This document shows, one piece after another, positions 4,661 to 63,946 of a stretch of DNA of 64,000 nucleotides. The stretch's first letter is position 1. The number at the start of each line of letters is the position of its first letter. The DNA lies in NCBI GenBank assembly GCA_047974375.1, contig JBKECF010000015.1, forward strand, positions 50,185 through 114,184, read 5' to 3'. The notes under the pieces are model-generated. The model ran no database searches. It was not told the DNA's origin and was given only the letters and a program-made list of their open reading frames with translations. Source of the stretch: Lachnospirales bacterium. GTDB lineage: Bacteria > Bacillota > Clostridia > Lachnospirales > CAMZNU01. The position numbers and the translations under genes are program-made.

Positions 4661-4706
4661 ATACTAAAAAAACATGAAATACATGTAAAATTTAGATTAT
4701 TTTGCA

Positions 4707-4775
4707 CTTTATAGTCTAACAATTTACGGCTGTTAGGTAGAAACTTGTTTTCCTTATTAAAACGGTTATATAAAG
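4707..4775 (-). promoter_or_regulatory. Purine riboswitch aptamer, guanine-type (C at the specificity position)
   Basis: Minus strand: CUUUAUAUAACCGUUUUAAUAAGGAAAACAAGUUUCUACCUAACAGCCGUAAAUUGUUAGACUAUAAAG. It aligns helix by helix with the B. subtilis xpt G-box: P1 CUUUAUA/UAUAAAG, J2/3 GUUUCUACC, L3 CCGUAAA, and 3' GACUAU carrying the discriminator C. Confidence 0.9.
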
Positions 4776-4784
4776 TATGCTTGA

Positions 4785-4813
4785 AGTATAAACTAAAATA
4801 AAATTTTACTCAA
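4785..4813 (-). promoter_or_regulatory. Sigma-A-type promoter of the riboswitch-purEKL transcript
   Basis: Minus strand TTGAGT, 17 nt spacer, TATACT. The predicted start falls a few nt before riboswitch P1. Confidence 0.5.
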
Positions 4814-16958: not shown

Positions 16959-17049
16959 TCTAGTGTTCAGCTTTGCTTTATTGCTTGAGCAACCAACTTC
17001 GCAAAAACTAAGCACTCTGCGTTTATCTGCCGTTCATTGCAATTCTATT
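16959..17049. repeat. Copy A of an intergenic repeat family (core CTTCGCAAAAACTAAGCACTCTGCGTTTATCTGCCGTTCAT)
   Basis: About 50 of 59 core positions are identical to the copy at 19311-19372 (hand count). Related to 18598-18705. Lies between the SBP and permease genes of one operon. Confidence 0.7.
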
Positions 17050-17053
17050 AAGC

Positions 17054-17090
17054 CAAAAAACACTTAGGTGTTTCATATACCTAAGTGTTT
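17054..17090 (-). terminator. Intra-operon hairpin/attenuator just after the SBP gene
   Basis: Perfect 11-bp stem AACACTTAGGT/ACCTAAGTGTT, followed on the minus strand by TTTTTT. Confidence 0.6.
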
Positions 17091-18597: not shown

Positions 18598-18705
18598 TCT
18601 GAATTTTTGTTTCGCAAAAACTAAACGCTTTGCGTTTATCTGCTGTTCATTACAGTTCTATTCTGAATTTTTGCTCTGGTCATAAAGCTTTGCTTTATTG
18701 CTCGA
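18598..18705. repeat. Repeat-family units (one complete unit plus the 5' part of a second unit, cut by the IS)
   Basis: TTTCGCAAAAACTAAACGCTTTGCGTTTATCTGCTGTTCATTACAGTTCTATT followed by CTGAATTTTTGCTCTGGTCATAAAGCTTTGCTTTATTGCTCGA. Contains the hairpin AAACGC-TTT-GCGTTT. Confidence 0.7.
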
Positions 18706-19303
18706 CAGACTGTGTCAAAACCTTAAAATATGATATAAAAAAGCGTAAATATCGTTGGAGGTTTTAAAATGAAGTATATACAAAGTGAAAATAGATTTCA
18801 AAAAGTAATGCTACCAGATAGCATTGATGATTATATAAAAGAAGAAAACCCAACTAGAGTAATAGACGCTTTTGTAGAAACATAAATATGGGTGAACTAG
18901 GATTTAAAATAGGAGAGCATGAAAGTGGCAGACCTTCCTATGATCCAAAGGATATGTTAAAACTTTATATATACGGATACTTTAATAAAGTTAGATCAAG
19001 TAGGAAACTAAAAAGAAAAACGAAAATAAACATAGAAGTTATTTGGTTATTAAACAAATTATCCCAAGATCATAAAACGATTTCAAGATTTAGAAAGGAC
19101 AATACAAAGGCTTTAAAGAACACATTTAGAGCCTTTGTTAAAGTATGTCTAAAATTAAATTCGTATAAAAAATAACTAATAGGAAAATTAGGAGTAATAT
19201 AGGAGTCTAATGTTCCCATTAGGTTCTAAAAAATGAAAATTGCTGAGATGTGATTTTGTAAACCTAAAAATTCATATATAAAGTTGAATTTTGACACAGT
19301 CTG
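18706..19303 (+). mobile_element. Internally deleted (MITE-like, ~0.6 kb) IS1182-family element with intact terminal inverted repeats
   Basis: Terminal IRs CAGACTGTGTCAAAA (18706-18720) and TTTTGACACAGTCTG (19289-19303). Flanked by TCGA and TTGA. The uninterrupted repeat copy at 16981-16990 reads TTGCTTGAGC, consistent with a 4-bp target duplication. Confidence 0.75.
18769..19175 (+). pseudogene. IS1182-family transposase, N-terminal part only (frameshift near 18883, truncated at 19175)
   Basis: MKYIQSENRFQKVMLPDSIDDYIKEENPTRVIDAFVET* followed by MGELGFKIGEHESGRPSYDPKDMLKLYIYGYFNKVRSSRKL...HKTISRFRK. This is the typical IS1182/DUF772 N-terminus. The catalytic DDE part is absent. Confidence 0.75.
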
Positions 19304-19438
19304 TTGAGCCTGAAACCAACTTCGCAAACACTAAATGCTTTGCGTTTATCTGCCGTTCATAGCTGTTTTATTCTAAGTTTTTTAACCCATATAAACTAAA
19401 TGCTCTGCATTTAGTTACCATTTCACCAAAGTTCTATA
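19304..19438. repeat. Repeat-family units (3' part of the interrupted unit plus one more unit)
   Basis: TTGAGCCTGAAACCAACTTCGCAAACACTAAATGCTTTGCGTTTATCTGCCGTTCAT... The next unit carries a perfect 10-bp hairpin AACTAAATGC-TCT-GCATTTAGTT. Confidence 0.7.
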
Positions 19439-31463: not shown

Positions 31464-32520
31464 CTGAGTTTTACAGCAAAGCGACTGGTGAAATACCCAA
31501 ATTCTTTATTTCATAAAGGTTTTCGGGTATATAAACATTACAGAAAGGAATAGCTATAAATAGTTGTCCTTAATTTTCGTTTTTAGCTTAATTTTAAATA
31601 TTTTTTGTTTAAATTTATATTAGTTTTTTCTTCAATTTTTTTGACAGTTCACTTTGCTTATTTAAAATATAAATTCCGTCTTCTAATTCTCTACAAGCAA
31701 GAGATAATAGCTATTTTTGTAACCTCTCTACGGAATTGTTCTAAATAATTTTCTAATACTCGTAATGTAACTAATACTATATTACATATTAAAAATATCC
31801 TTTTATATGTCCATCAATCTTTACATATACTGGTCTTCCTTGTAAGTCAGATTTTATTGCTTTAAAGCTTCCTTTCATTTGTCATAATCTCTATATTATT
31901 CAACTATGTCTAAATAGTTTTTTTCTAAATCACTTGTGACTATTCCATCTAAATTTTTATCTTGTTCATATTTTTGTGACAAAAAAACTACAATTTTTTC
32001 ATTTCCGGTTTCACTCTTTACAATACGTACCCTTTTGAAAAACTTAATTTAAAATGTTTTAGACTCATTATAAATGTATCAGTCTTTATTTAATATTTCC
32101 GTTCGAGACGCTTTACTGCTACCTGTAATTTTTTGAGAAACTACATATACGTTGTTATTTTCTACCATATACAGTAAGTTTTAACCGCTATTTAAACCCC
32201 TATCTACCGTTAACTTAATATTGTCAATGTGCAAAGTTTTTTGCATTTTCTAAAAAAGGTTTTACTGATGATATATCAGCTGTATTCCTTTAAATAAATC
32301 ATACGATATAGGAATGCCATTTTTATCTATTAATATAGCCATCTGTACTAGTAGATTTTTCCTATTTTCCTTAGAAATTCTCTTTTTCTTTAGTCCTTCT
32401 TCTTTTTTTGTACATAGTTATTTTTTCCTCCTTCGGTTAAAAATACTTTACACGTATTTTTACTATTTTTTAAGGCATTCTTACTTTGACGTTTACGTTA
32501 TTTCAGATGTAAAACTCAGG
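31463..32520 (-). mobile_element. Decayed, shortened IS4-superfamily (IS1634-like) element with recognisable terminal inverted repeats and a multiply disrupted transposase
   Basis: 13-bp IRs: CCTGAGTTTTACA (31463-31475) and TGTAAAACTCAGG (32508-32520). Hand translation of the minus strand from ATG 32415 gives MYKKRRRTKEKENF*, then ...NRKNLLVQMAILIDKNGIPISYDLFKGNTADISSVKPFLENAKNFAH*, then IDNIKLTVDRGLNSG*. These are IS1634/IS4-like motifs broken by stops and frameshifts. Confidence 0.65.
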
Positions 32521-32660
32521 ATAAATATTAAATATTAAAAAGGGGCATTTGCGAAATGCCATAAATAACAAAAGGAGTAAAAATAAGCAAGGACGCACTA
32601 TACAGATTCACAAAAAATATATTAATAAAAGAAATTTCAGAAGACATACATTACCAGTTT

Positions 32661-32766
32661 ATCGGTAAGAATTAGACCCCCACCTCAATGTATAATAGTT
32701 GCGGAACTGTCTAAGTCGCCGTTCAGTGGGGGTACTAGCCCCCACTGACAGATAGGTCGATTGACT
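32661..32766 (+). repeat. Copy 1 of an unclassified ~100-nt structured dispersed element
   Basis: 87 of 106 positions are identical to 63673-63778 in a gapless hand alignment. Perfect 10-bp hairpin TCAGTGGGGG/CCCCCACTGA (32723-32748). Confidence 0.75.
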
Positions 32767-32769
32767 GAA

Positions 32770-33354
32770 ATATTAAAAGAAGAAAATGATTATATAAATG
32801 AATATGGAATGGAAAAGAAAAGTGCAATAAGCATAAAAGGAATAGAAAAGACATAAAAGAAAATAGCAGAAAATAGAAAAAAACTTTCAAACAAGCAAAT
32901 ACTAGAAATAGACGGAATATATGTGTGTTAAATGATAACAACGCAAAGGAAACTTGAAACAATAATGGAAGTTGAAGGTATAGAGAAAGTAGCAGTAAAA
33001 GGGCAAAGAAAAAGTGAACACCAGAAATTAGCATCAAGATTTCATGCTATAGGAAAAAGATTAGAAGAATACAAGAAAAATTTTGAAATAATGAGAACAG
33101 ATAGAAATAGCTACAGGAAAACGGATACAGATGTAATATTTATGAGGACAAAAGACGATCATATGATGAATGATCAATTGAAGCCGTGTTACAATCTTCA
33201 GTTTGCAGTTGAAAACTATTTTATAATACATACATATATTTCAAATAATAGAACAGACTACAATACACTAACTCCAGTAGTTGAAAAACATAAAGCTATG
33301 GAAGAAATGTGGCATAAATGTATAGGCAAACATAAAACTAAGATAACCCTATAG
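32770..33354 (+). pseudogene. Internal fragment of an IS1182-family transposase
   Basis: ...RTDRNSYRKTDTDVIFMRTKDDHMMNDQLKPCYNLQFAVENYFIIHTYISNNRTDYNTLTPVVEKH matches the conserved IS1182 core ([30 protein letters not shown]). N- and C-terminal parts and IRs are absent. Confidence 0.7.
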
Positions 33355-33461: not shown

Positions 33462-33517
33462 AAAAAAAGGCCTTGCGATTTAGCAAAAAACGCTATTTCG
33501 CAAATGACCCTTTTTTT
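33462..33517 (-). terminator. Terminator of the giant surface-protein gene
   Basis: A-run, long imperfect hairpin (GGCCTTGCGATTTAGC...GCTATTTCGCAAATGACC), then a T-run. Lies 18 nt after the stop. Confidence 0.6.
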
Positions 33518-33534
33518 ATATTGCTAAAAATATT

Positions 33535-36500
33535 CTACTCCACTATTTCGTATTCATCACCAAAATTTCCTTCATAATGACCTTTATGACTATTTAATGA
33601 TTCTAATATATGATAATAAGCCCAATGTGCTTGGTTTAAATCATTTGGTATTTCGAATTGTGATAAATACTTTCTATTTGGAATTCTATTTGTCCCATTG
33701 TTTATCATAACTATTACTTCTGCTCTTGTTGCTAGTGCATTAAAGTCATAGTCATTTAAGCTAAATCCGTTATATAAGCCATTTGAATAAGCTTTTATAA
33801 TAAAAGGCGTCGCCCAATTATTCGGATCTAACGGCAATGCATTTACCTCGCTATTATTAACTGTACCAAATACATTTGATAATATTGTAGCCAATTCAGC
33901 TCTAGTAATATTTTTGTCTGGCTTGAATGTTTCATCTTCATAGCCATTTACATATCTCTTTATTGTCATATAATTTACTGCTTCTGCATACCATTTGTCT
34001 TGGTCTATATCCCTTAAAGTTGTGGCAGCGTAAATATTTTTATCAGTTTTTTCATCATATAAAATATTGTATAGCATAACAACAACTTCTGCACGTGTAA
34101 TCTCAAAGTCCGGTTTTACACTTCCATCAGGATATCCATTTACATATTTTTCGTGTTCATATGCTGTTCCAGAATAATCCACTCCTCTAGGAACATCAAC
34201 ATAAACTGTTTTAGTGCGATCAGTATTTACATGTATAACTTCTTTTTCTATTTCTTTTTCTACCTTACTATATTTAAATTCATATGTTGCCTCTACTTCA
34301 GTTCCAATTGTTATTGACTCATTAGTTGGTTTGTAGCCATCTCTATATGGTGCAAAAACAACTTGACCTGGGTAAACATCAACGGAAGTATTACCAATAG
34401 ACGTTCCATTATATGTCATGTTAATAGTAGTAGGTACTGTAGGCTGTACTAATGTTACCGGTTCATAGTAGAAACCTACTTTTGTATCATCATTAACGAC
34501 TTCATTGTAATAAACCTTCTGTGAGTTTTGTCCATTTATAGAAGAACTCATAAAATTATAGTTTTGAACATTTAATGCATATTCAGAAAAATATTCACCT
34601 TTAATAATTCTTCCTTTTACTGGGTTGAATTTTATACCAAGTAAATTTGGACTTAGTAATACTCCAGATTTGTCAAAGTAACTTATTTCAACGTCTTTAT
34701 AATCAGCAGTAAACTCATACGTAATAGTATGGTCCTCGTAAGTATCACCACTACCCATTGTAAAATCTTCACTTCCGGATATCAAACCACTATATATATA
34801 TGGTGGTGATATTAAGCCTTCTAATTCGCCTTTAACTTTATTTGCCTCTGCTGATGTGTATTTTCCGCCAGCGTCAACTGCATCATCTAATTGCGCCAAT
34901 AATGTATATTTTTTTCCATTAATTACTTCTGTACCATCTTTATCTTCTACAACTGCTCTTATTAAAACATTCCCTGTAATGTTTCTGTAGTAATAATTTA
35001 CAGTTTGATTATGCTCTACTTTTATAATCTGCCTTAATTTTTCAGTGTTTTTATTAGTATTTATTACATAATTATTTTCAAAAGGAGCTATTACTGTTGT
35101 AAATTCACCATTCGAAACAGTATATTCTGAATTCAACAAATTTGGTGCTAAACTAGCCTTTTCTGTTTCAGACATAGTACTAAGGAGAGTTGTGTTGTCT
35201 TTATCATAAATTTCTACATTATGATTAATATTCAACTTAGACATAATACGATTGTACAAGAATGTAAATCCGCTATCTATACCATAAGTTAACTTTTTAT
35301 TAAGGTTATAGTTTTCATTAATTTCGTATCCCATTTCCAAAGCTTCACTTGGTTTAATAGGAGAAATGGTAATTACTTCACCAACATTTCCCTTTAGTAC
35401 TTCTGTTTTTACTACAACTTGATATCCATTTACATAGGATATATGTTTAATATTCAGTGTACTTGGTACTGCTATTTTATTAAAGTAAAATATATACTCT
35501 TGAGAATTTGTTACGTTCTCGAATGTTTTATAAGACAATCCATCAACTTCATATTCCGCAATATGAGGGGCATGAACAGTAACAGTTCCACCTTCTATAA
35601 CAGGTATAACAGATTCTTCTGTAAAGTTTAAAACTTCATTAGTAGTTTTATCTTTCGCTACTATAGTTATTGCTAAGTTAGACATTTCGTATAAAAATAC
35701 AACTTCCACATATCCAGAAACAAAAGTTGCCTCTTTATATGGCTCATCTTTTAGCTTATATCCAGTAAATTCGCCAAGCTCTTCTGCTGCACCTATTCTA
35801 ACGGTTTCGCCTATTGTTCCATTTTTAGATTTAAAATCAAGTATTTTATATCCGCCTTTTCCGTCAGATACTTTAGCTATAATATTTACTACTCCATCAG
35901 TCACAATTGTATAATCAACAAGCTGGTATTCAAATACAATATTATACTCTGGCTCAGATACTGTTTCACTATAGGAGCTTTTAGTTGATGTTAAATTGTA
36001 ATAGTCAATATTTACAGCATACTCATTAAACGCTTCACCATATTGCATTGTGTATGTAGATGTTGGAAAAACTTCTACGCCAAACTGGTCTACGTATTTT
36101 ACAGTAATTACAGAATCAACATCTTTATATTTCAATTCTATAATATTTTTACTTAAATCAGAACTTACATTATCAAGAGTTGTAGTACTTGTTAAATCAT
36201 ATAAATAACCTGGGGCTAACGCACTTGATATCTCATTGATTTTATCTTGAGTTACTGTATAAGGGCTATTTGTTGTTGCTTCAACACCTCTTACTAATAA
36301 AGTATTTCCTTTGCTGTCAACTGCATGTAAAAAAACGTTACCTTCTATTGGTATGTATCTATATTCAACTGCTATGTCAGTTGTTCCCACTTCAGTAACT
36401 TTTCTAAAAGTTTCGCTACTCTTTAACTGATAGTCATCTATTAACATAGCGCTAGAAGTAAATTTAGAATTTGTGTTAACATCAACAGTCGATGTAGATT

Positions 36501-39500
36501 CAATAACATCACCACTTGCAGTTTCTTTAATATGGTTTACTGTTAGCTTCACTTTATTTCTTTTAAAAGTAAATACCACTTCTTTGTCATTACCAAATAT
36601 TGCTTCTTGAACACCATCTCCTACAAGAGTCCAATCATCTGGATTATAAATTTCATTTTCATAATTGCTTATAATCACAGATGCTAATTCTTTCCTTTGG
36701 CCAGTTAAAACTTTTGAGCCTATAATATATTTACCATCGTCCGATATACCTTTAATAACTAGATTTTCGTCCATATCAATATTCTCGTAAACAAAAGTAA
36801 ATTCTGTATTAGCCACTATTCCTGTACCCTCAGCGTTATTTTCCGCTACATAAGGCGCTTTTATTTCATATCCTACTACAGGTGGTGCATAAATTAAATA
36901 TTTACCACCTTTATTGTAAGTAAAAACTTTACTTGTTTCACCATCATAAAAACTTAATGGATTCCCATCTAAATCTTCAGCTTTTATAGTTACAGTATAA
37001 GTGTCTCTTTCATACAAGAAAACTATCTCCTTATGTTTATTTCCATAAGGCATTGTTTGTATATTATCGCCACTTAGACTATAGTAACCTATAAAGTTTT
37101 CCGCCGAGAACTCCTCGGAAGCGTTAATTGTTAAAGTGCTTCCTTGATCAGCTGTATAAACTTTGTAATAAAGGATGTCTTGTGTATCTTTATCCTTAGC
37201 CATAACAGTAATTGATCCACCAGCTATTTTGTAATAAAAAGTATGGTTATAGCTACTTTGGCTAGCACCTTCTACATTATATAAAGCAGAGGATTTACTT
37301 GTATCCAAATAATAATCATCTACACTTTTTGCAGATTCACTAATTGCCGTTCCATATGGTACAGTATAAGTTTTTTGTGCAGAAATAGATTCATTTGCAC
37401 TATCCACATAATTAATTGTTACTGTACTTAGCTGCTCTTTGTATATAAAAACTACCACAGAATCTTTTTCTACGAGAGATAAAGTATAAGGTGATTGACT
37501 ACTAGGCTCTAACACATATCTTGGGCTCAACATTGCATTTAAGTCATCAGCCGTTACCTTTACATTTTTATCACCAATTGGATAGTCTGTAGATGAACGT
37601 ACCAGCACTTTACCTGTTGGACTGTCTAGCCTAGCTTCTATAACAACACCCTCTTGTAATTTAATATATGTAAAGGATTGAGTCTTACTACTATCATTAG
37701 CAGTTATTGTCTTCTTATAACTATCTGCATTTTTATCTTTTAATTCGTATCCATCCACAACTTTAGCAGTTATAGTAAGTTTATCATTTAAAGGTACATT
37801 AAATACATCTGTTCCTAATACTAATCCTGTTCCGTCTTCAACATAATTCACTGTTATATCAATCATTTTTCGTGTATATGCAAAAGTTACTTCTTCATCT
37901 ATTCCATAAACTACATCTTTACTTGTTATATCTTTACTTATATCTCCGTCTGCTGTATATAATCCAACTAAAGTCCAGTTTGGAAGGTTCGTCTTTGCAT
38001 TTATCTTTGTTGTTGTTGATTCATTCCCGTTGTGAATTTGTGAATAAACAGTATTGCCTGTTGCTTTACCACTGCTATCTACTTCTATACCCTTTGAAAC
38101 AACTAATTTACCAATAGGCTCATAATAGAAAGTTGCTGTTTCAGCAGACATTACATTAGTGTAATTTATAAAATCATCACTGTTTTGGTCGTCTTTATCA
38201 ATCCCTATAACACTATAGTTTTCAATATGAGGAGCATTTATCATTATACTATCGCCCTCTTTTATTGGAACAATATTATCTGTAATTGGTAAATTCTTAC
38301 CATCCTTATCTTTCGCTACAATTGTTACATTTAAGCTTGTAGGCTCGTACAAAAATTCAATGTTTACAAAACCATTAGTATACACAGCTGACTTTTCTTC
38401 ATTATCCTTTAGTTTATATCCTACAACATCACCAAATATGGCAGTAGCATTAACAATTTGTTGTTCACCTATTGTTCCAGAAATCGATTTAAGAGCTAAA
38501 GTATTGCCATCTGTTCCCTTAGCGATTATATTTATTACACCATCTGTTACAATTTCATAATTAACTCTCTCGTAAGTAAAAGTAATTGTATGTGGCGACT
38601 CACTTACTTTTGATATTTCTTGATGATTAACCGATGTTAAATTATGAAAGTCAACATTAATTGCATATTCTTCAACAGGTTGGTCAAATTGAGCCTTGTA
38701 AGTTTTTGGTGGTATTATATCTATTCCACCTTCATCTACATATTTTACTATTATGTCAGACATTACCTTTGTATAATAAAGATTAACAATATTATCTGCT
38801 GGTGTTGCTGTCACAGTTAAACTTGTTTCACTAGCTTCATCATATTTATAGGCTGCCGAACTGTTTGTCTTTAAGTCTGATGGCATAGCAGTATATGTAT
38901 CTCCAATATTTCCGCTATAATATTTTCCTTCGAGTATCTCTCCTGTTTCCTTATCTTTTGCTACTACTAGAATGTTACCAGATGCAGAAACATAATTTAT
39001 TTCTACAGTTAAATTACTTGTTCCAACTGCAATTACTTCATATGGCTGTTGGTCTGTAGCGTACTCATAGTTATTAATAAATTTAGCATTTACGTTATAG
39101 TTGCTTTTTGTTGGTACTGAAATAATTTCGCTATCTGCAATTTCAGCGCCACTACTATTAACATATTTCACCGTTAAATCAACCATTTTACGTTTAAATT
39201 TAAATTTAACTTCCTTATCTGTACCAAATATTGCTTTTTTACTTGCTACATCAACTAATTCCCATTTATCTAAATCTATATATGCGTAATAATCACTTAC
39301 ATTTATTTGTTTTTCTATTCCTCTATCACCGCTTATTACACCGGTATTTATAATTATCGTTTCATCATCTGATATAGCTTTAATTGATAAATTTACAGTT
39401 CTATCAATTTTTTTGTATTTAAATGTATGTGTAACATTCGCATTAATATTACTTCCACTTAAAAAAGGTGGATCCGATATTACTTCATAACCAGTTACTG

Positions 39501-42500
39501 GAGGAGCATAAATACTATAATTACTTCCTTTTTTATAAGTAAATACCTTACTTGATGCTCCATCGAAAAAATTGATATCTGCATCCTCTTCATCCTTGGC
39601 TGTTAAAGTAACTGTGTATTTAACACTATCATATAAAAACACTAATTCTTGATGATTAATATCAAATGTAACACTAGCAGGTAAAGTTGTATCTGCTTTC
39701 AATGTGTAATTAGTTAAGAAGCTTTCTCTTTCAAAATATGTGTCGGGGCTATCTATTGTTAAACTTTCTCCTGGAACACCATTTTCCACTTTATAGCCTA
39801 ATATAGCTCCTGTTATACTATCTTTTGCTAAAACGGATATAGCTCCATTTGCAGGTTTATAAATAAAGTTAAGTGTCACTGTATCACTATTAGCTACTTG
39901 ATGATAGCTAGCTTCAGTAGCATTACCTGAGGCACTATCAAAAAAGTAATTTTTAATACTCTTTGCATCTTCGCTAATTAAATCACCATAAAAAACTTCG
40001 TATTCTTTTTTAGTAGCTAAAGAGTTGTCCGTTAAGTCAAGATAGTTAACAGTTACCTTCGTTTTCTTCTCTTTAAATACAAAATCGACTACTGTATTCT
40101 CACCTACTTTGGAAACCACCCTTGGTGAAGTTGTATCAAGGATATACCTAGGGCTTAGCATATTTTCTAAATTAGATGCACTTACACTAACATTTATAGC
40201 TCCTAGGTCTGCATCAACTGAATCACCTGCAAGTATTTTACCTATTTCACTTTCTAGCCTTGCATTAATTTTAATAGCGTCTTTTATTGGTTCATAAGTA
40301 AAGGATATTGTATTTAAACTATCCGTAACCATCTCGCTATCTAAGTAAGTACTAACTAATTTATATCCGTCTATATGTTTAGCAACAAAAATTTCCTCTG
40401 TATTTATAGGTAAATTAAATGTATCTGATGTTCCTATTTCAGCACCAACTTTATCAACATATGTTACCTTTACTTCTTTTGTCTTTCTTTTATACGCAAA
40501 AGTTACTTCTTTATCTGTGCCGAATATTATGTCTTTAGAATTTGCTCCTACTGAAACATTCGAAAAAACTCCTTGGTCATCATAATTTACCAAGCCAACT
40601 AATTCCCAATTTTCTAAATCATTTTTGGCACTTATACTTTTAGATTCAGTTTCACCGCCTGGAACTAGTTCGGTGTATACTAAATTTCCTGTTGGTTTGG
40701 TATCACCATCAACTTCGATACCTGTAGTTAGAATATTGCTTTCGCTTAATACATATTCAAACTCAACTACTGTTCTACCAAAATTTTCTAATGTTCCCCC
40801 ATTTGTAGAAGGTAATTTAACAGTTTTAGTTGCCTCTGTTGGATCAACTAAAGCATAATTTTCCATGTGTGGTGCATCAATTACAGCCGTATATTGATCT
40901 GCCTCTGGTGTACCTTCTTTACTTACAAGTAAGTAATTCCCAGTAGATATTTCATCACCTATATATTTTTTAGTACCTGCGCCATCTAGGTAATATGGTT
41001 TTTTAATTACTTCTGTCCATTTTTTCTTGTATTTTGTTACAGTAAAGTTAATTTCTTGAGATTCACTATTTAATGTAATGTCTTTAGAATTTGCATCTTT
41101 AAGTTGGTATCCCATTTCTTCAAGGTCACTTAAAAATTTATCTGCTTTAACAGTTACTTTACTTCCTGCCGCATTACTCTCATCCATATTTTGTAAAACT
41201 GTTTCCCCATTAACATCGTCAATAAAATTAATATATAACCTTGCCATTTGTTGGTAGTTATCTACATAAACAGTTTCTATATATGGCCTATATTCTTCGT
41301 TTACCATATACAAAGTATAGTATCCATTTTTCTTTGGATATGTTTTAAAACTGAAATTAAAAGAACCATCTCCATTTACCGTTGGTAAATCTGCTTTATC
41401 AAAGGAAAAATAAGAACCTGTCTTGCCAGCATATCCATCCCAATCATCTTTTATAGTATCATCGTCTACATAATTACCTAAGTCAGCAAAAAATTCGCTA
41501 TCTCTTGTTTTTGCTGTATTCATATCCTCATCTAGTGTCCATGCAGCATAGACTATATCCGATGTAGAGTAACCTTTGTCTTTTAACTTTATATCAACGT
41601 AGTTTGGTAATGTAGTATCTTTATCATCTACATACACAGCTGTTGATGGATCCAAGCTTGGGCTACTAGAAAAATACTTTTCTAAGTTTGAGTTTTTCGC
41701 CTCCGTACCAAAGTATAAATCTATTAAATGGCCAATTACATTCACTCTACCTTGAGTATACTGCCAATGCCATAAATATTTACCATCATATACACCAATT
41801 GCATTGTTTTGTGTTTCATTATAATTATTATCTTTTATTTGCCACCTATTAGACGGTATTTCAACATTTTTTCCAGTTTTAGTATCGTATCTATATCTAT
41901 TTGCTTCAGCTACACTATACGTATTAACCCATATATTTCTACCATCATAAGTTATATCTTCTTTGTTCCCATCTGCTGGGATCATATCAGTGTAAACTTT
42001 TGTATAACTACCGTCAGATTTTTTAAAACGTGCAAGGTCTGTGTTAGCATATAGTGCTTGTGTACTAATCGCATAGATGTAGTCATTTCCATCATATACT
42101 AATCTGGATACATATCCATCTGTTAATGGATGTGTTGTAGTTGTATTAGTTGAAATGTTATATTTTAAAATCGAATTTTGATTTCGTGCAATCCATATAT
42201 TTTCTCCGTCAAAAATCATGTCATTACCATGAGAAGAACTTCCGTATACTCCATTTGTAAATGTAGTAAGCTCTGTACTATCTACAACATAACCGCCTGT
42301 TATTTCATTTCGAGTAGCTTTATATAAATATCCAGTTGAGCCATAACGACCTAATAAATATAAAGTGTTATGATCAAAGGTTAAAGCACAAATATTGCCA
42401 TATAAACGATTATTGTTTTTATAGCCAGAAATAATACCTTCGTTAACTGTTGTATATGATGTAACAACTTTTCTGGTGCTAGCTTCTACAAAAGCAAGAT

Positions 42501-43275
42501 AACCATAGTTGTCCTTTACAATAATATATCTACCATCAAATACTGCACTAGCACTTATTTCATCAAAATACCTACCAAGTGAACCTGTAAACACAGGGTT
42601 AATATCGATTGATGTATTAAAGTATTCATCAATATCATCCATGCTATAGACTTGAAAACCGCCATAATTTGTAAAAATCCACACTTCATCGTCAGCAATA
42701 ACTAAAGGACCGTTATCCCCACCTGACATATCATCCATTTTATCACTGTATAAAGTTTCCATATTTGTATCATCATTTAAGGGATTCTTAGGAAATAACG
42801 AAAAAGTACCACTACCACTATTGTAAACCCTCTCTCCCTTTAGTTCGTAATTATTGTAAATAGTACTTACATTTCCTGTATCGGAATCTTTTAAAATTAC
42901 CATTACGGATACATACCTATATACATTGTCTAATGAAAAAGTGAATGTGCCTACTTTTTCTTCATGGCCGTATATCCTTTTGCTTTTTGGTGTTGCAGTT
43001 TTATTGTACCCTCTTTCGTAGGTAATACCCGCAACCTCTTTTCCTTTTGTGTTTACTGTTACATCAACTGTCCTTTGAGTTTTTGTTCCTCCAGCAGTAA
43101 AAGTAATGTCATCACTTGCTCCCAATACTCTAATTGAACTGGGTGTACTTATGTTTTCTTTGTAGAAATTGTTTCTTCCTTTATTTGATGCCGACACTTC
43201 CACCATATTTGAATTTAAACCTATAGAGGTAAAAAGCATAATGGTAGCTAATAAAATAGATAAAGCCTTCTTCAT
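33535..43275 (-). CDS. Giant (3246 aa) secreted, SLH-anchored modular surface protein / putative adhesin
   Basis: Uninterrupted 9.7-kb ORF in AT-rich DNA. Sec signal peptide, seven propeller-like repeats, more than 25 beta-sandwich-like modules (MucBP-like xVxYVDxxG alternating with IxVxAKDKxTG), and three C-terminal SLH motifs (YVNGYPDGSVKPDFEITRAE, YVNGYEDETFKPDKNITRAE, ALATRAE). Confidence 0.9.
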   Translation of the reverse strand: MKKALSILLATIMLFTSIGLNSNMVEVSASNKGRNNFYKENISTPSSIRVLGASDDITFTAGGTKTQRTVDVTVNTKGKEVAGITYERGYNKTATPKSKRIYGHEEKVGTFTFSLDNVYRYVSVMVILKDSDTGNVSTIYNNYELKGERVYNSGSGTFSLFPKNPLNDDTNMETLYSDKMDDMSGGDNGPLVIADDEVWIFTNYGGFQVYSMDDIDEYFNTSIDINPVFTGSLGRYFDEISASAVFDGRYIIVKDNYGYLAFVEASTRKVVTSYTTVNEGIISGYKNNNRLYGNICALTFDHNTLYLLGRYGSTGYLYKATRNEITGGYVVDSTELTTFTNGVYGSSSHGNDMIFDGENIWIARNQNSILKYNISTNTTTTHPLTDGYVSRLVYDGNDYIYAISTQALYANTDLARFKKSDGSYTKVYTDMIPADGNKEDITYDGRNIWVNTYSVAEANRYRYDTKTGKNVEIPSNRWQIKDNNYNETQNNAIGVYDGKYLWHWQYTQGRVNVIGHLIDLYFGTEAKNSNLEKYFSSSPSLDPSTAVYVDDKDTTLPNYVDIKLKDKGYSTSDIVYAAWTLDEDMNTAKTRDSEFFADLGNYVDDDTIKDDWDGYAGKTGSYFSFDKADLPTVNGDGSFNFSFKTYPKKNGYYTLYMVNEEYRPYIETVYVDNYQQMARLYINFIDDVNGETVLQNMDESNAAGSKVTVKADKFLSDLEEMGYQLKDANSKDITLNSESQEINFTVTKYKKKWTEVIKKPYYLDGAGTKKYIGDEISTGNYLLVSKEGTPEADQYTAVIDAPHMENYALVDPTEATKTVKLPSTNGGTLENFGRTVVEFEYVLSESNILTTGIEVDGDTKPTGNLVYTELVPGGETESKSISAKNDLENWELVGLVNYDDQGVFSNVSVGANSKDIIFGTDKEVTFAYKRKTKEVKVTYVDKVGAEIGTSDTFNLPINTEEIFVAKHIDGYKLVSTYLDSEMVTDSLNTISFTYEPIKDAIKINARLESEIGKILAGDSVDADLGAINVSVSASNLENMLSPRYILDTTSPRVVSKVGENTVVDFVFKEKKTKVTVNYLDLTDNSLATKKEYEVFYGDLISEDAKSIKNYFFDSASGNATEASYHQVANSDTVTLNFIYKPANGAISVLAKDSITGAILGYKVENGVPGESLTIDSPDTYFERESFLTNYTLKADTTLPASVTFDINHQELVFLYDSVKYTVTLTAKDEEDADINFFDGASSKVFTYKKGSNYSIYAPPVTGYEVISDPPFLSGSNINANVTHTFKYKKIDRTVNLSIKAISDDETIIINTGVISGDRGIEKQINVSDYYAYIDLDKWELVDVASKKAIFGTDKEVKFKFKRKMVDLTVKYVNSSGAEIADSEIISVPTKSNYNVNAKFINNYEYATDQQPYEVIAVGTSNLTVEINYVSASGNILVVAKDKETGEILEGKYYSGNIGDTYTAMPSDLKTNSSAAYKYDEASETSLTVTATPADNIVNLYYTKVMSDIIVKYVDEGGIDIIPPKTYKAQFDQPVEEYAINVDFHNLTSVNHQEISKVSESPHTITFTYERVNYEIVTDGVINIIAKGTDGNTLALKSISGTIGEQQIVNATAIFGDVVGYKLKDNEEKSAVYTNGFVNIEFLYEPTSLNVTIVAKDKDGKNLPITDNIVPIKEGDSIMINAPHIENYSVIGIDKDDQNSDDFINYTNVMSAETATFYYEPIGKLVVSKGIEVDSSGKATGNTVYSQIHNGNESTTTKINAKTNLPNWTLVGLYTADGDISKDITSKDVVYGIDEEVTFAYTRKMIDITVNYVEDGTGLVLGTDVFNVPLNDKLTITAKVVDGYELKDKNADSYKKTITANDSSKTQSFTYIKLQEGVVIEARLDSPTGKVLVRSSTDYPIGDKNVKVTADDLNAMLSPRYVLEPSSQSPYTLSLVEKDSVVVFIYKEQLSTVTINYVDSANESISAQKTYTVPYGTAISESAKSVDDYYLDTSKSSALYNVEGASQSSYNHTFYYKIAGGSITVMAKDKDTQDILYYKVYTADQGSTLTINASEEFSAENFIGYYSLSGDNIQTMPYGNKHKEIVFLYERDTYTVTIKAEDLDGNPLSFYDGETSKVFTYNKGGKYLIYAPPVVGYEIKAPYVAENNAEGTGIVANTEFTFVYENIDMDENLVIKGISDDGKYIIGSKVLTGQRKELASVIISNYENEIYNPDDWTLVGDGVQEAIFGNDKEVVFTFKRNKVKLTVNHIKETASGDVIESTSTVDVNTNSKFTSSAMLIDDYQLKSSETFRKVTEVGTTDIAVEYRYIPIEGNVFLHAVDSKGNTLLVRGVEATTNSPYTVTQDKINEISSALAPGYLYDLTSTTTLDNVSSDLSKNIIELKYKDVDSVITVKYVDQFGVEVFPTSTYTMQYGEAFNEYAVNIDYYNLTSTKSSYSETVSEPEYNIVFEYQLVDYTIVTDGVVNIIAKVSDGKGGYKILDFKSKNGTIGETVRIGAAEELGEFTGYKLKDEPYKEATFVSGYVEVVFLYEMSNLAITIVAKDKTTNEVLNFTEESVIPVIEGGTVTVHAPHIAEYEVDGLSYKTFENVTNSQEYIFYFNKIAVPSTLNIKHISYVNGYQVVVKTEVLKGNVGEVITISPIKPSEALEMGYEINENYNLNKKLTYGIDSGFTFLYNRIMSKLNINHNVEIYDKDNTTLLSTMSETEKASLAPNLLNSEYTVSNGEFTTVIAPFENNYVINTNKNTEKLRQIIKVEHNQTVNYYYRNITGNVLIRAVVEDKDGTEVINGKKYTLLAQLDDAVDAGGKYTSAEANKVKGELEGLISPPYIYSGLISGSEDFTMGSGDTYEDHTITYEFTADYKDVEISYFDKSGVLLSPNLLGIKFNPVKGRIIKGEYFSEYALNVQNYNFMSSSINGQNSQKVYYNEVVNDDTKVGFYYEPVTLVQPTVPTTINMTYNGTSIGNTSVDVYPGQVVFAPYRDGYKPTNESITIGTEVEATYEFKYSKVEKEIEKEVIHVNTDRTKTVYVDVPRGVDYSGTAYEHEKYVNGYPDGSVKPDFEITRAEVVVMLYNILYDEKTDKNIYAATTLRDIDQDKWYAEAVNYMTIKRYVNGYEDETFKPDKNITRAELATILSNVFGTVNNSEVNALPLDPNNWATPFIIKAYSNGLYNGFSLNDYDFNALATRAEVIVMINNGTNRIPNRKYLSQFEIPNDLNQAHWAYYHILESLNSHKGHYEGNFGDEYEIVE
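33538..34161 (-). other. C-terminal SLH (S-layer homology) anchoring region, three SLH motifs (last ~208 aa)
   Basis: Three repeats of the G-Y-x-D-x-x-F/V-K-P-D-x-x-I-T-R-A-E type, plus W-A/Y-containing helices. Confidence 0.75.
35458..38106 (-). repeat. Super-repeat B of the giant protein (aa 1724-2606, 883 aa)
   Basis: Same module order as A: LSPRYILD/LSPRYVLE, YTVTLTAKDEED/YTVTIKAEDLDG, IYAPPVTGYE/IYAPPVVGYE, VKYVDEGG/VKYVDQFG, IVTDGVINIIAKG/IVTDGVVNIIAKV, VTIVAKDKDG/ITIVAKDKTT. Confidence 0.8.
38107..40734 (-). repeat. Super-repeat A of the giant protein (aa 848-1723, 876 aa, ~9-10 modules)
   Basis: Colinear with super-repeat B over its full length. Example: GIEVDGDTKPTGNLVYTE...NWELVGL versus GIEVDSSGKATGNTVYSQ...NWTLVGL, 23 of 44 identical in the stretch I counted. 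Confidence 0.8.
41716..42723 (-). other. Putative seven-bladed beta-propeller region (aa ~185-520)
   Basis: Seven repeats of an aromatic-D-G/D-x-x-hydrophobic-W/Y core at aa 194, 246, 300, 355, 394, 443 and 496: ADDEVWI, FDGRYII, FDHNTLY, FDGENIW, YDGNDYI, YDGRNIW, YDGKYLW. Spacing is 39-55 aa. Confidence 0.55.
43189..43275 (-). other. Signal peptide of the giant protein (aa 1-29, predicted cleavage VSA/SN)
   Basis: MKKALSILLATIMLFTSIGLNSNMVEVSA: n-region KK, hydrophobic core, then an AxA-like site. Confidence 0.7.
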
Positions 43276-55210: not shown

Positions 55211-55279
55211 TATATTTTAAAAGGAACAAGTTACATCTATATAATAATAAAATAGTTAATTTGTTCCTTTTATTTAAGT

Positions 55280-55376
55280 AAGTAATAGACCTATCCTCCA
55301 GCGGGAGTTTATACCCCACTGAGCAATAAATTAGACATACCCATAGTGTTAAGAATTAGGGTCTAATTCTAAGGAT
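55280..55376 (-). repeat. Copy 2 (shorter, more diverged) of the structured dispersed element
   Basis: The reverse complement shares three blocks with copies 1 and 3: AGAATTAGACCC, GTCTAA...TCAGTGGGG and GATAGGTCTATTACT. The hairpin is retained with G-U pairs. It starts 5 nt after the stop of the SBP gene on the same strand. Confidence 0.65.
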
Positions 55377-55381
55377 TAAAT

Positions 55382-61655: not shown

Positions 61656-63599
61656 ATGTTAGTAAATACAAAAAACTCTCCCATGGCAAAAGTAATTCCA
61701 TTGGAGTGGGATAAAGTTAATTGGAACTCTGGGTTATGGAAAGAAGTTCACAATACTTTACGTGATACAACTGTTCCACATTTACAAACCATGTTTGAAA
61801 GCAAAGATATAAGCCATGTTTTAGAAAATTTTCGTATTTGTGCAGGTATTACTGAAGGTGAACATGAGGGTACTGTATTTGGTGATGGAGATTTTTATAA
61901 GTGGATGGAAAGTGCAATTTACATAGCAGGAAAAGAAAATAACAATGCTATGTTAAACAAAATTGATGAATATATTGATTTAATAAGACGAACACAATTG
62001 GAAGATGGTTACATTTCCACAAAACAAATAATAGGAGAAAAAACTGGTAAAAGTAAAAGACTAGGCGATATAAATGAATTTGAAGTTTATAATATGGGAC
62101 ATCTTTTTACTTCTGCTGCCTTGCACTTTAATATTACTGGAAAAAGAAACTTCCTAGACATAGCTGAAAAAGCTGCCATGTATCTTAAAAAAATGTACGA
62201 AGAAGCAAAAAAAGTTGGAGAAGCTCAAACAGCTGTTTGTCCTTCCCACTATATGGGATTAATGGAACTTTATAGAGCTACGGAAAATAAAATTTACCTA
62301 GAGCTTGCAAAACTTGCAATAGAAGTTAGAGATATGGTAAAAAAAGGGTTAGATGATAATCAAGATAAAATCCCTTTAAAAGATCATAGAGAAATTGTAG
62401 GTCACGCTGTTCGTGCTAATTATTTATACGGTGGTCTATCAGACTTATTACTAGAAATCGAAGATGAAGAATATGCTAAAGTAATCGAAAGTGTGTATAA
62501 GGATCTTATATCAAGTAAGATATATATAACAGGTGGATGCGGCGCTTTGTATAATGGAACATCACCCTATGGTAATTTTTTTCATGATGATAAAGTACAT
62601 CAGGCTTACGGGTACCATTATCAATTACCAAATGTTACTGCATACAACGAAACTTGTGCCAACATTGGTCTTGTAATGTGGTGCTATAGAATGTTTCTGA
62701 AAGATCCAAAAAGTCAGTATATGGATTTAATAGAAAAAGTTATGCTTAATGTAAATTTAGCAGCTATAAACTTTGATGGAAATAAATACTTTTATCAAAA
62801 TGCTCTAAGACGTACCAAAGATTTACCCTATGAACTTATATGGCCTCTAACACGAAGTGAATATATTTTGAGTTATTGTTGTCCTCCGAATTTAGCAAGA
62901 AATTTATCTCAATCAAGTGAATACATATACACGAAATCCGAGGATACATTGTATACTGGCTTATATGGAAGTAGTACAGGTGAGATACATCTTGATTCTA
63001 CTTCATTTAATATTGAGCAAGTTACTAATTACCCGTACGATGGTAAAATATTATTTAATATTAATAATATAAGGAGAGATGGTAATTTCTCTATTAAATT
63101 CCGTATACCAAACTGGGTTACTCAAGGTTATATAGAATATGAGAATAAAAAAATAGATATTTCCAACTCCCACGGATATGTTAACATCGACTTTAAAACA
63201 AAAGATGATTTTCAATTAGAGCTTAATTTTAAATTTATGCCTCAAATTATTGTTAGTCATCCCTATGTTGAAGAAACAACTTTTCAAGGTGCAATAGAAT
63301 ACGGTCCGTTAATTTATTGTTTAGAAGGATTAGACTCCAAAATAGAAACAATAGATAAACTTATGATTCCTAATAACCTAAAATTTAAGTCAATTGAAAT
63401 AGAAATTGCTAATAAAAAAATAACAGCATTAGAAGGCGATATGGTAGTGCTTGAAACAGAAAAAAATAATTCACTATATAAACCTCTTGGATTACACAAA
63501 TTGAACACAACTACTGTTAAAATGATTCCATATTTCGCTTGGGATAATCGAGAATTTTCTGAAATGAAAATTTGGTTTCCTATATATTTTAATATTTAA
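61656..63599 (+). CDS. GH127 (DUF1680) beta-L-arabinofuranosidase family protein
   Basis: 647 aa with GHAVRANYLYGG, YNETCANIG and the cysteine motif YCCPPNLARN characteristic of GH127. Confidence 0.8.
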   Translation: MLVNTKNSPMAKVIPLEWDKVNWNSGLWKEVHNTLRDTTVPHLQTMFESKDISHVLENFRICAGITEGEHEGTVFGDGDFYKWMESAIYIAGKENNNAMLNKIDEYIDLIRRTQLEDGYISTKQIIGEKTGKSKRLGDINEFEVYNMGHLFTSAALHFNITGKRNFLDIAEKAAMYLKKMYEEAKKVGEAQTAVCPSHYMGLMELYRATENKIYLELAKLAIEVRDMVKKGLDDNQDKIPLKDHREIVGHAVRANYLYGGLSDLLLEIEDEEYAKVIESVYKDLISSKIYITGGCGALYNGTSPYGNFFHDDKVHQAYGYHYQLPNVTAYNETCANIGLVMWCYRMFLKDPKSQYMDLIEKVMLNVNLAAINFDGNKYFYQNALRRTKDLPYELIWPLTRSEYILSYCCPPNLARNLSQSSEYIYTKSEDTLYTGLYGSSTGEIHLDSTSFNIEQVTNYPYDGKILFNINNIRRDGNFSIKFRIPNWVTQGYIEYENKKIDISNSHGYVNIDFKTKDDFQLELNFKFMPQIIVSHPYVEETTFQGAIEYGPLIYCLEGLDSKIETIDKLMIPNNLKFKSIEIEIANKKITALEGDMVVLETEKNNSLYKPLGLHKLNTTTVKMIPYFAWDNREFSEMKIWFPIYFNI

Positions 63600-63672
63600 A
63601 GCTACAATAAATAGAGCTACGGTAAATGAAAAATTCCATACCTTACCATAGCTCATCATACTTAGCCATTTA

Positions 63673-63778
63673 ATCGGTAAGAGTTAGACACTCGCCTCAA
63701 TGTATAATAGTGACGGGACAGTCTAATTCGCCGTTTAGCTGGGGTACAATCCCACACTAACGGATAGGTCTATCGACT
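63673..63778 (+). repeat. Copy 3 of the structured dispersed element
   Basis: 87/106 identical to copy 1 (gapless). Lies ~70 nt downstream of the GH127 stop on the same strand. Confidence 0.75.
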
Positions 63779-63917
63779 TATTCCTTAATAACACTCTCTA
63801 TTTCTTCTTTGGAATATTTTTTGTATTTTCTTCAACATTATCATCGTCATTCATTTGTTCAAAATACTCTTCTAAACTTATCGTCTATTTTTTTATTCTA
63901 TCTTTTATCTTAATCTA

Positions 63918-63946
63918 TTAATAATTTGATTTTGTTATGTTATAAT
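63918..63946 (+). promoter_or_regulatory. Candidate promoter for the ORF starting at 63976
   Basis: TTAATA, 17 nt spacer, TG-n-TATAAT. Confidence 0.4.

Follow-up and report, generated by a model that had tools for sequence, protein, structure and literature searches.

What is the small hairpin-forming sequence that recurs in this stretch of bacterial DNA, and does it serve the genes that it follows or chiefly its own spread? The stretch analyzed (64 kb, referred to throughout as the window) is ordinary chromosome of an NCBI MAG labelled Lachnospirales bacterium, and its gene content includes pur genes, an Rnf complex, ffh, rpsP, gltX, sugar and peptide ABC transporters and glycoside hydrolases. 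A preliminary description of the DNA, made from the letters alone, had reported three copies of an unclassified dispersed family with a conserved hairpin. The copies were delimited, folded, placed among their neighboring genes and compared with known element classes and with public sequence collections.

The box pattern TTAGAC..GTCTAA..GATAGGTC matched the 64-kb window at 32672-32758 (+), 63684-63770 (+) and 55288-55366 (-) and matched none of 100 shuffled windows, and a separate pattern composed of the hairpin tip and the tail recovered the same three copies. A covariance model built from the three copies gave them 129, 127 and 100 bits; run without filters, it scored every other match in the 64-kb window below 15 bits and revealed no degenerate extra copies. 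The box pattern and the covariance model thus confirmed the three copies first described. The ungapped identity given at that time for copies 1 and 3 (87 of 106 positions) was exact, and the homology was found to extend beyond the ends then drawn, to 99 identical positions of 127 (32645-32771 versus 63657-63783), with similarity dropping sharply at both ends of this 127-nt unit. Copy 1, as the full unit common with copy 3, lies at 32645-32771 (+) with a covariance-model core at 32658-32772, copy 2 at 55274-55381 (-) and copy 3 at 63657-63783 (+). Copy 2 is the most divergent, with ~63% identity to copy 1 or copy 3, and its 3' half is better conserved than the rest. Copies 2 and 3 were reproduced, with identical scores, in a separate Logan assembly of the same sample. 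Its contigs break off at ~31841 and ~33470, either side of copy 1, so that this copy is attested by the MAG contig alone and the 1.6-kb segment between the breaks is repeated, polymorphic or hard to assemble. The repeat family is real, consisting of three dispersed, non-coding copies of ~110-127 nt, and its earlier characterization as an unclassified dispersed family with hairpin structure is supported; because only three copies are to hand, the ends, copy number and conservation of the family are poorly defined.

On the element strand, every copy is predicted to fold into two adjacent stem-loops, P2 and the G+C-rich P3. In copy 1, P2 spans 32669-32717 (+) and is held by an invariant stem in which TTAGAC (32672-32677) pairs with GTCTAA (32709-32714); this 6-bp core extends to 9 bp, and the distal part of the hairpin varies among copies. 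The predicted equilibrium pair probability of P2 is 0.83-1.0 in all copies and ~1 for TTAGAC/GTCTAA. P3 spans 32719-32751 (+) in copy 1, where it forms a perfect 10 bp (TCAGTGGGGG/CCCCCACTGA) with a conserved GGGGTA at the tip; internal mismatches occur in copies 2 and 3, a C-G pair is replaced by U-A in copy 3, and copy 2 has G-U pairs. The perfect 10 bp, the change to U-A and the G-U pairs had been described correctly. Directly after P3 comes a 3' tail, GATAGGTC(G)AT at 32751-32761 (+) in copy 1 and GATAGGTC(N)AT overall, whose GATAGGTC is invariant in the three copies, unpaired and without a common pairing partner. A closing helix P1 shared by the three copies (UUUA(A)UC with GAUAGGU, including two G-U pairs) is possible on paper and was rejected: it enters the minimum-energy fold of copy 2 only, imposing it raises the energy by 3.7 kcal/mol in copy 1 and by 9.5 kcal/mol in copy 3, and copy 1 prefers another closing helix (CAGUU.AUCG/CGAU.GACUG). 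Since the closing helices differ among copies, only P2, P3 and the tail are common features. The alternative pairing once proposed for TTAGAC, with GGTC(T)A, did not survive folding: it comprises 4-6 bp, is broken by a G in copy 1, has a probability of ~0 and costs ~7-14 kcal/mol to force. A switch by alternative pairing was rejected as thermodynamically negligible.

Fold z-scores versus dinucleotide shuffles were -4.2, -3.4 and -3.5 on the element strand and weaker (-3.3, -1.2 and -1.8) on the opposite strand. The G+C content of copy 1 (46%) and copy 3 (44%) compares with 30% for the window, and these copies rank third and about tenth, respectively, among all 110-nt stretches of the window. 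Standard pairs make up 90.5% of the pair cells in the three-copy alignment. Two P3 pairs change on both sides, one from U-A to C-G and one from C-G to U-A; this number of compensatory pairs was equaled in 186 of 500 shuffles, a comparison that has no statistical power at three sequences. In the consensus structure, G-U pairs stand to C-A mismatches at ~9 to 3, a bias to which the prediction of the structure on the element strand itself contributes. Both hairpins have a high predicted probability in each copy, and covariation among the three sequences is not above shuffles. From the fold models, identity as a small structured RNA is plausible.

No reading frame common to the three copies was found. 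Antisense frames of 28 and 31 codons are open at 32659-32745 (-) and in the matching stretch of copy 3, and their peptides are similar (..TP.(E/K)RR.R..R.YYTLR..SNSYR). Because a stop interrupts the frame in copy 2, it was judged to be due to chance and an antisense peptide was rejected. A promoter in the P2 loop was likewise rejected, the TATAAT found there being absent from copy 2.

The surroundings of the copies are of two kinds. Copy 2 starts immediately behind the TAG stop (55384-55382) of a co-oriented DUF3502 binding-protein gene and is followed on the element strand by a long hairpin with a T-run (~55215-55270), between convergent genes; its position between stop codon and terminator hairpin places it inside the 3' UTR of that operon. 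Copy 3 starts 58 nt after the stop of a co-oriented GH127 gene (61656-63599) and lies upstream of an ecfA promoter-like site at 63918-63946. Position thus suggests that copies 2 and 3 are co-transcribed with the upstream gene. A 12-bp hairpin with one mismatch and without a T-run (GAGCTACGGTAA..TTACCATAGCTC, 63609-63652, +) was also observed between the GH127 stop and copy 3, and it has no counterpart at the other copies.

Copy 1 lies in 2.1 kb of debris between two decayed, 5'-truncated transposase remnants. To its left is a remnant of the IS1634 family (31560-32480, -; profile positions 147-295 of 483), and directly to its right one of the IS1182 family (32761-33354, +; profile positions 209-306 of 488 at ~32986-33297), whose frame start at 32761 is our own reading. 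Copy 1 occupies the position where the N-terminal coding region of either transposase would be expected, and standing in place of that region it is not a natural part of either IS. Because it is found within decayed IS DNA, where it serves no gene, the spread of the family is not tied to gene function. The suggestion of a 3'-UTR element therefore stands for copies 2 and 3, which follow stop codons and are co-oriented with the genes, and fails for copy 1.

The interval 31560-33354 as a whole is an IS graveyard, both remnants being without their N-terminal parts. An inverted 23-nt terminator-like pair, AAAAGGG(G/T)CATTTGCGAAAT.., at 32538-32560 (+) and 33492-33514 (-), brackets copy 1 and the IS1182 remnant, and no shuffle of the window yielded two matches to it; the right-hand member (33492-33514) is part of the terminator of a giant surface-protein gene. 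That gene (33535-43275, -) encodes 3246 residues with MucBP and C-terminal SLH domains and has internal repeats of ~1.3 kb.

Known families were searched directly. With Rfam 15 at the gathering score there was no match on the element, the sole match in the window being a purine riboswitch aptamer at 4692-4793 (-), which scored 77 bits (gathering score 37) and lies upstream of purE and purK. At E<=10 no Rfam match fell on any of the three copies, in agreement with the preliminary description, which had recognized no Rfam family. ARAGORN found no tRNA or tmRNA in the window, and terminator scans found none on the element, where GATAGGTC follows P3 instead of a T-run; the element was accordingly confirmed to be neither tRNA-like nor a simple terminator. 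Hammerhead and other ribozymes were rejected, there being no Rfam match and no conserved core. An integron attC site has R'' (RYYYAAC) 5' and R' (GTTRRRY) 3' of an imperfect palindrome; here the core order is reversed, with (G)TTAGAC 24-31 nt before GTCTAA, and no GTT core stands after P3, so attC was rejected. A variable/template repeat pair of a diversity-generating retroelement was rejected because copies 1 and 3 do not differ specifically at adenines, and the attL/attR pair of an island because the mismatches behind the 80% identity are scattered and the third copy, which is inverted, stands between the other two.

Terminal inverted repeats and target-site duplications are the defining marks of MITEs (PMC3184786). 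The best inverted match of one end of the repeat to the other was 5-7 nt, which was reached by 29 to 243 of 300 shuffles, and the best flanking direct repeat was 7-8 nt, A-rich and reached by 30 to 200 of 300 shuffles; the flanking direct repeat of copy 3 scored 5 when mismatches were penalized. The only IS in the window with intact ends, an IS1182-like element at 18705-19304, has no similarity to the repeat. A MITE by the usual definition was therefore rejected, and with it the earlier MITE-like label; an IS end is improbable as well, the repeat having no likeness to the only intact IS ends in the window, those of the IS1182-like element (18705-18720 and 19289-19304). Among the window proteins scanned there was no intact transposase or recombinase, and no Y1_Tnp or TnpB.

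The IS1182-like element is itself an internal-deletion derivative of ~600 bp, with perfect 16-bp terminal inverted repeats (TTTTGACACAGTCTGT) at the two ends just given and a transposase reduced to its N-terminal DUF772 part, with stops. It is inserted in one unit of a second small dispersed repeat family, found at 16962-17059, 18611-18704 and 19305-19382 (+), whose unit reads approximately GCTTTGCTTTATTGCT..AACTTCGCAAAAACTAAACGCTTTGCGTTTATCTGC.. and has an AAACGC/GCGTTT hairpin; the unit at 16962-17059 is uninterrupted and can be used for comparison. This second family is intergenic, between rpsP and a sugar-binding-protein gene, and is unrelated to the P2/P3 repeat.

Beyond the window, the strict box pattern (22 invariant bases) gave no matches in the GTDB representative genomes, IMG/VR or the JGI metagenomes. 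Looser patterns gave 7 viral matches and 1 metagenome match, all of which the covariance model showed to be chance, and blastn searches against phage and plasmid collections returned no match. By sequence, the repeat family is new to the collections searched. The lineage is isolated, judging from protein identities: the nearest relatives by GltX are 76%, 73% and 71% identical (69-76% across the four relatives sampled), and the best GH127 relative is 68% identical. In these four relatives, ~96 kb of non-redundant sequence around the GltX and GH127 genes, at loci that are not orthologous sites, held no copy; at the density of the window, one copy per 21 kb, four to five copies would be expected in that amount of sequence, and a covariance model made from three sequences could miss a diverged version of the repeat in the relatives. 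The C-terminal SLH part of the 3246-residue surface protein, used as a query for paralogous loci, returned only matches of 43% identity or less, from other taxa. The Logan contigs added almost no sequence beyond the window, ending at its edges or at IS remnants.

The reading that we prefer, with roughly as much doubt as confidence, is that of a small interspersed repeat confined to its lineage, probably a selfish or once-mobile sequence and not a dedicated regulator of the host, and co-transcribed where it lies behind a gene. It is preferred because the copies are dispersed with sharp ends, copy 1 lies in junk DNA, the repeat is absent from the relatives and collections searched, and it resembles bcr1, BOX and SPRITE. 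In principle, a copy that has come to lie behind a co-oriented gene, such as copies 2 and 3, would be included in the 3' UTR of the transcript. The stable hairpins would then affect the mRNA passively, by hindering 3'-to-5' decay or by offering a site for processing, as is thought for the BOX, ERIC, REP and bcr1 repeats. Such an element would spread without terminal inverted repeats or target duplications, and TTAGAC, GTCTAA, GGGGTA and GATAGGTC would be the best candidates for recognition by a trans-acting protein. Against mobility, which is inferred, the window yielded no terminal inverted repeat, target-site duplication, empty site or cognate enzyme. If this reading is true, the repeat is an annotation aid and a marker for this uncultured Lachnospirales lineage, and it cautions against taking every G+C-rich, structured island in AT-rich intergenic DNA for a regulatory RNA.

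Alternatively, a host-selected function could account for the blocks that the divergent copy 2 has kept. Such a function would be that of a cis-acting 3'-UTR RNA, in which the hairpins, together with the GAUAGGUC tail, are bound by a protein or halt exonucleases and so tune the stability or processing of sugar-utilization mRNAs. This account is unlikely. In its favor, copies 2 and 3 each occupy the 3' UTR of a co-oriented gene within one sugar-utilization cluster, folding is asymmetric between strands, G+C content is high for an AT-rich intergenic region, the blocks are invariant even at the ~63% identity of copy 2, and P3 has its two compensatory pairs and the excess of G-U over C-A. Those last two points are offset by the shuffles, which equal the covariation of the three sequences, and by the strand of prediction, which builds in part of the G-U bias. 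Copy 1 behind no gene, in IS debris, and the lack of any copy in the ~96 kb from relatives or in the public collections searched also argue against a function kept by the host.

A bolder reading, to which we give a small chance, is that the element is a new kind of structured unit, a hairpin with a single-stranded GATAGGTC tail that is recognized sequence-specifically and needs neither terminal inverted repeats nor target duplications to spread or act. This could take two forms. One is a mobile element that some enzyme recognizes as a single strand and that may be able to bracket and move gene cassettes, of which the 8.4-kb cluster flanked by copies 2 and 3 would be an example. The other is a 3'-UTR element, conceivably a new protein-binding RNA motif specific to an undescribed Lachnospirales lineage. 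The repeat would matter more if its invariant boxes were the recognition site of a new mobilizing enzyme or RNA-binding protein.

It is very improbable that the copies mark the ends of larger mobile units, for instance of a composite-like 8.4-kb sugar-utilization cluster, or serve such units as recombination sites, or that the repeat is an IS terminus. In favor of this, copies 2 and 3 are inverted around the 8.4-kb cluster with their tails outward, their outer 34 nt are 76% complementary, and copy 1 adjoins two IS remnants. The hairpin and the conserved tail after it may also resemble sites that HUH enzymes cut. Divergent operons that each end in a co-oriented repeat would, however, yield the same geometry. 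Composition is unchanged across the bracketed region, and a neighboring 700-aa gene with SBD_N/NBD_C/BKACE domains, outside the bracket, is functionally linked to GH127, their homologues being fused or adjacent in other genomes. Copy 1, for its part, is at the missing N-terminal regions of the transposases and not at an IS end, the intact IS1182-like ends (18705-18720 and 19289-19304) are unrelated to the repeat, and no recombinase was found in the window. A family of small RNAs with transcription of their own, or a new self-cleaving ribozyme whose fold resembles a three-way junction, is very improbable too. The fold is compact and G+C-rich with conserved unpaired nucleotides and, matching no known family, would be new; but there is no conserved promoter upstream and no terminator after the element, copy 2 starts right at a stop codon, the copies share no closing helix, and the sequence is not conserved in the relatives sampled.

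The preferred reading, a small selfish or formerly mobile repeat, can be placed among known systems. REPs are single palindromes of 20-40 nt with GTAG or CGTC at one end and have been proposed to stabilize mRNA (PMC3733652). The present repeat is like REP sequences, which are mobilized by RAYT transposases, in forming extragenic hairpins 3' of genes; it differs in its unit of 110-127 nt with two hairpins and in having no GTAG or CGTC tag beside either stem, and assignment to REP or REPIN was rejected on these grounds. It shares with the PATEs derived from IS200/IS605 the lack of terminal inverted repeats and of a target duplication, and the presence of subterminal hairpins on one strand. The left and right hairpins of PATEs resemble each other and are bound by one TnpA, whereas P2 and P3 have unrelated sequences and neither a Y1 transposase nor TnpB is encoded nearby; the PATE-like identity suggested earlier is not supported. 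With the MITEs Correia/nemis and RUP it shares size, lack of coding capacity, dispersal and the ability to fold, and it differs from them in having no terminal inverted repeats, target duplications or match to the IS ends intact in the window.

Closer parallels are found among repeats of restricted distribution. The pneumococcal repeats BOX and SPRITE are species-restricted, extensively structured, intergenic and often co-transcribed, are judged parasitic and can affect the expression of flanking genes (PMC3049150); it was the species-restricted pattern that led Croucher et al. to call BOX, RUP and SPRITE parasitic (PMC3049150). The present repeat has a similarly restricted distribution and is likewise structured and intergenic. 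BOX, however, is modular (boxA-B-C) with complementary A and C, in place of two unlike hairpins, and SPRITE is terminator-like, where this repeat has a conserved single-stranded tail and no T-run. The bcr1 repeat of the Bacillus cereus group (~155 bp) is non-coding, transcribed, lineage-specific and intergenic, forms two independent stem-loops, and has 5-bp flanking direct repeats, compensatory changes and many copies (PMC3184786). The repeat described here is, like bcr1, a small non-coding interspersed repeat of a Firmicute, with two independent stem-loops, an intergenic location and a lineage-specific distribution; unlike bcr1, it has no direct repeats, two compensatory pairs that are no better than shuffles at three sequences, three known copies and a host of a different order. 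The two were compared by description, and the likeness is one of kind and not of one family. If the preferred reading is true, the element is in kind a familiar object, and adds one lineage-specific small repeat to the list of BOX, bcr1, ERIC and REP.
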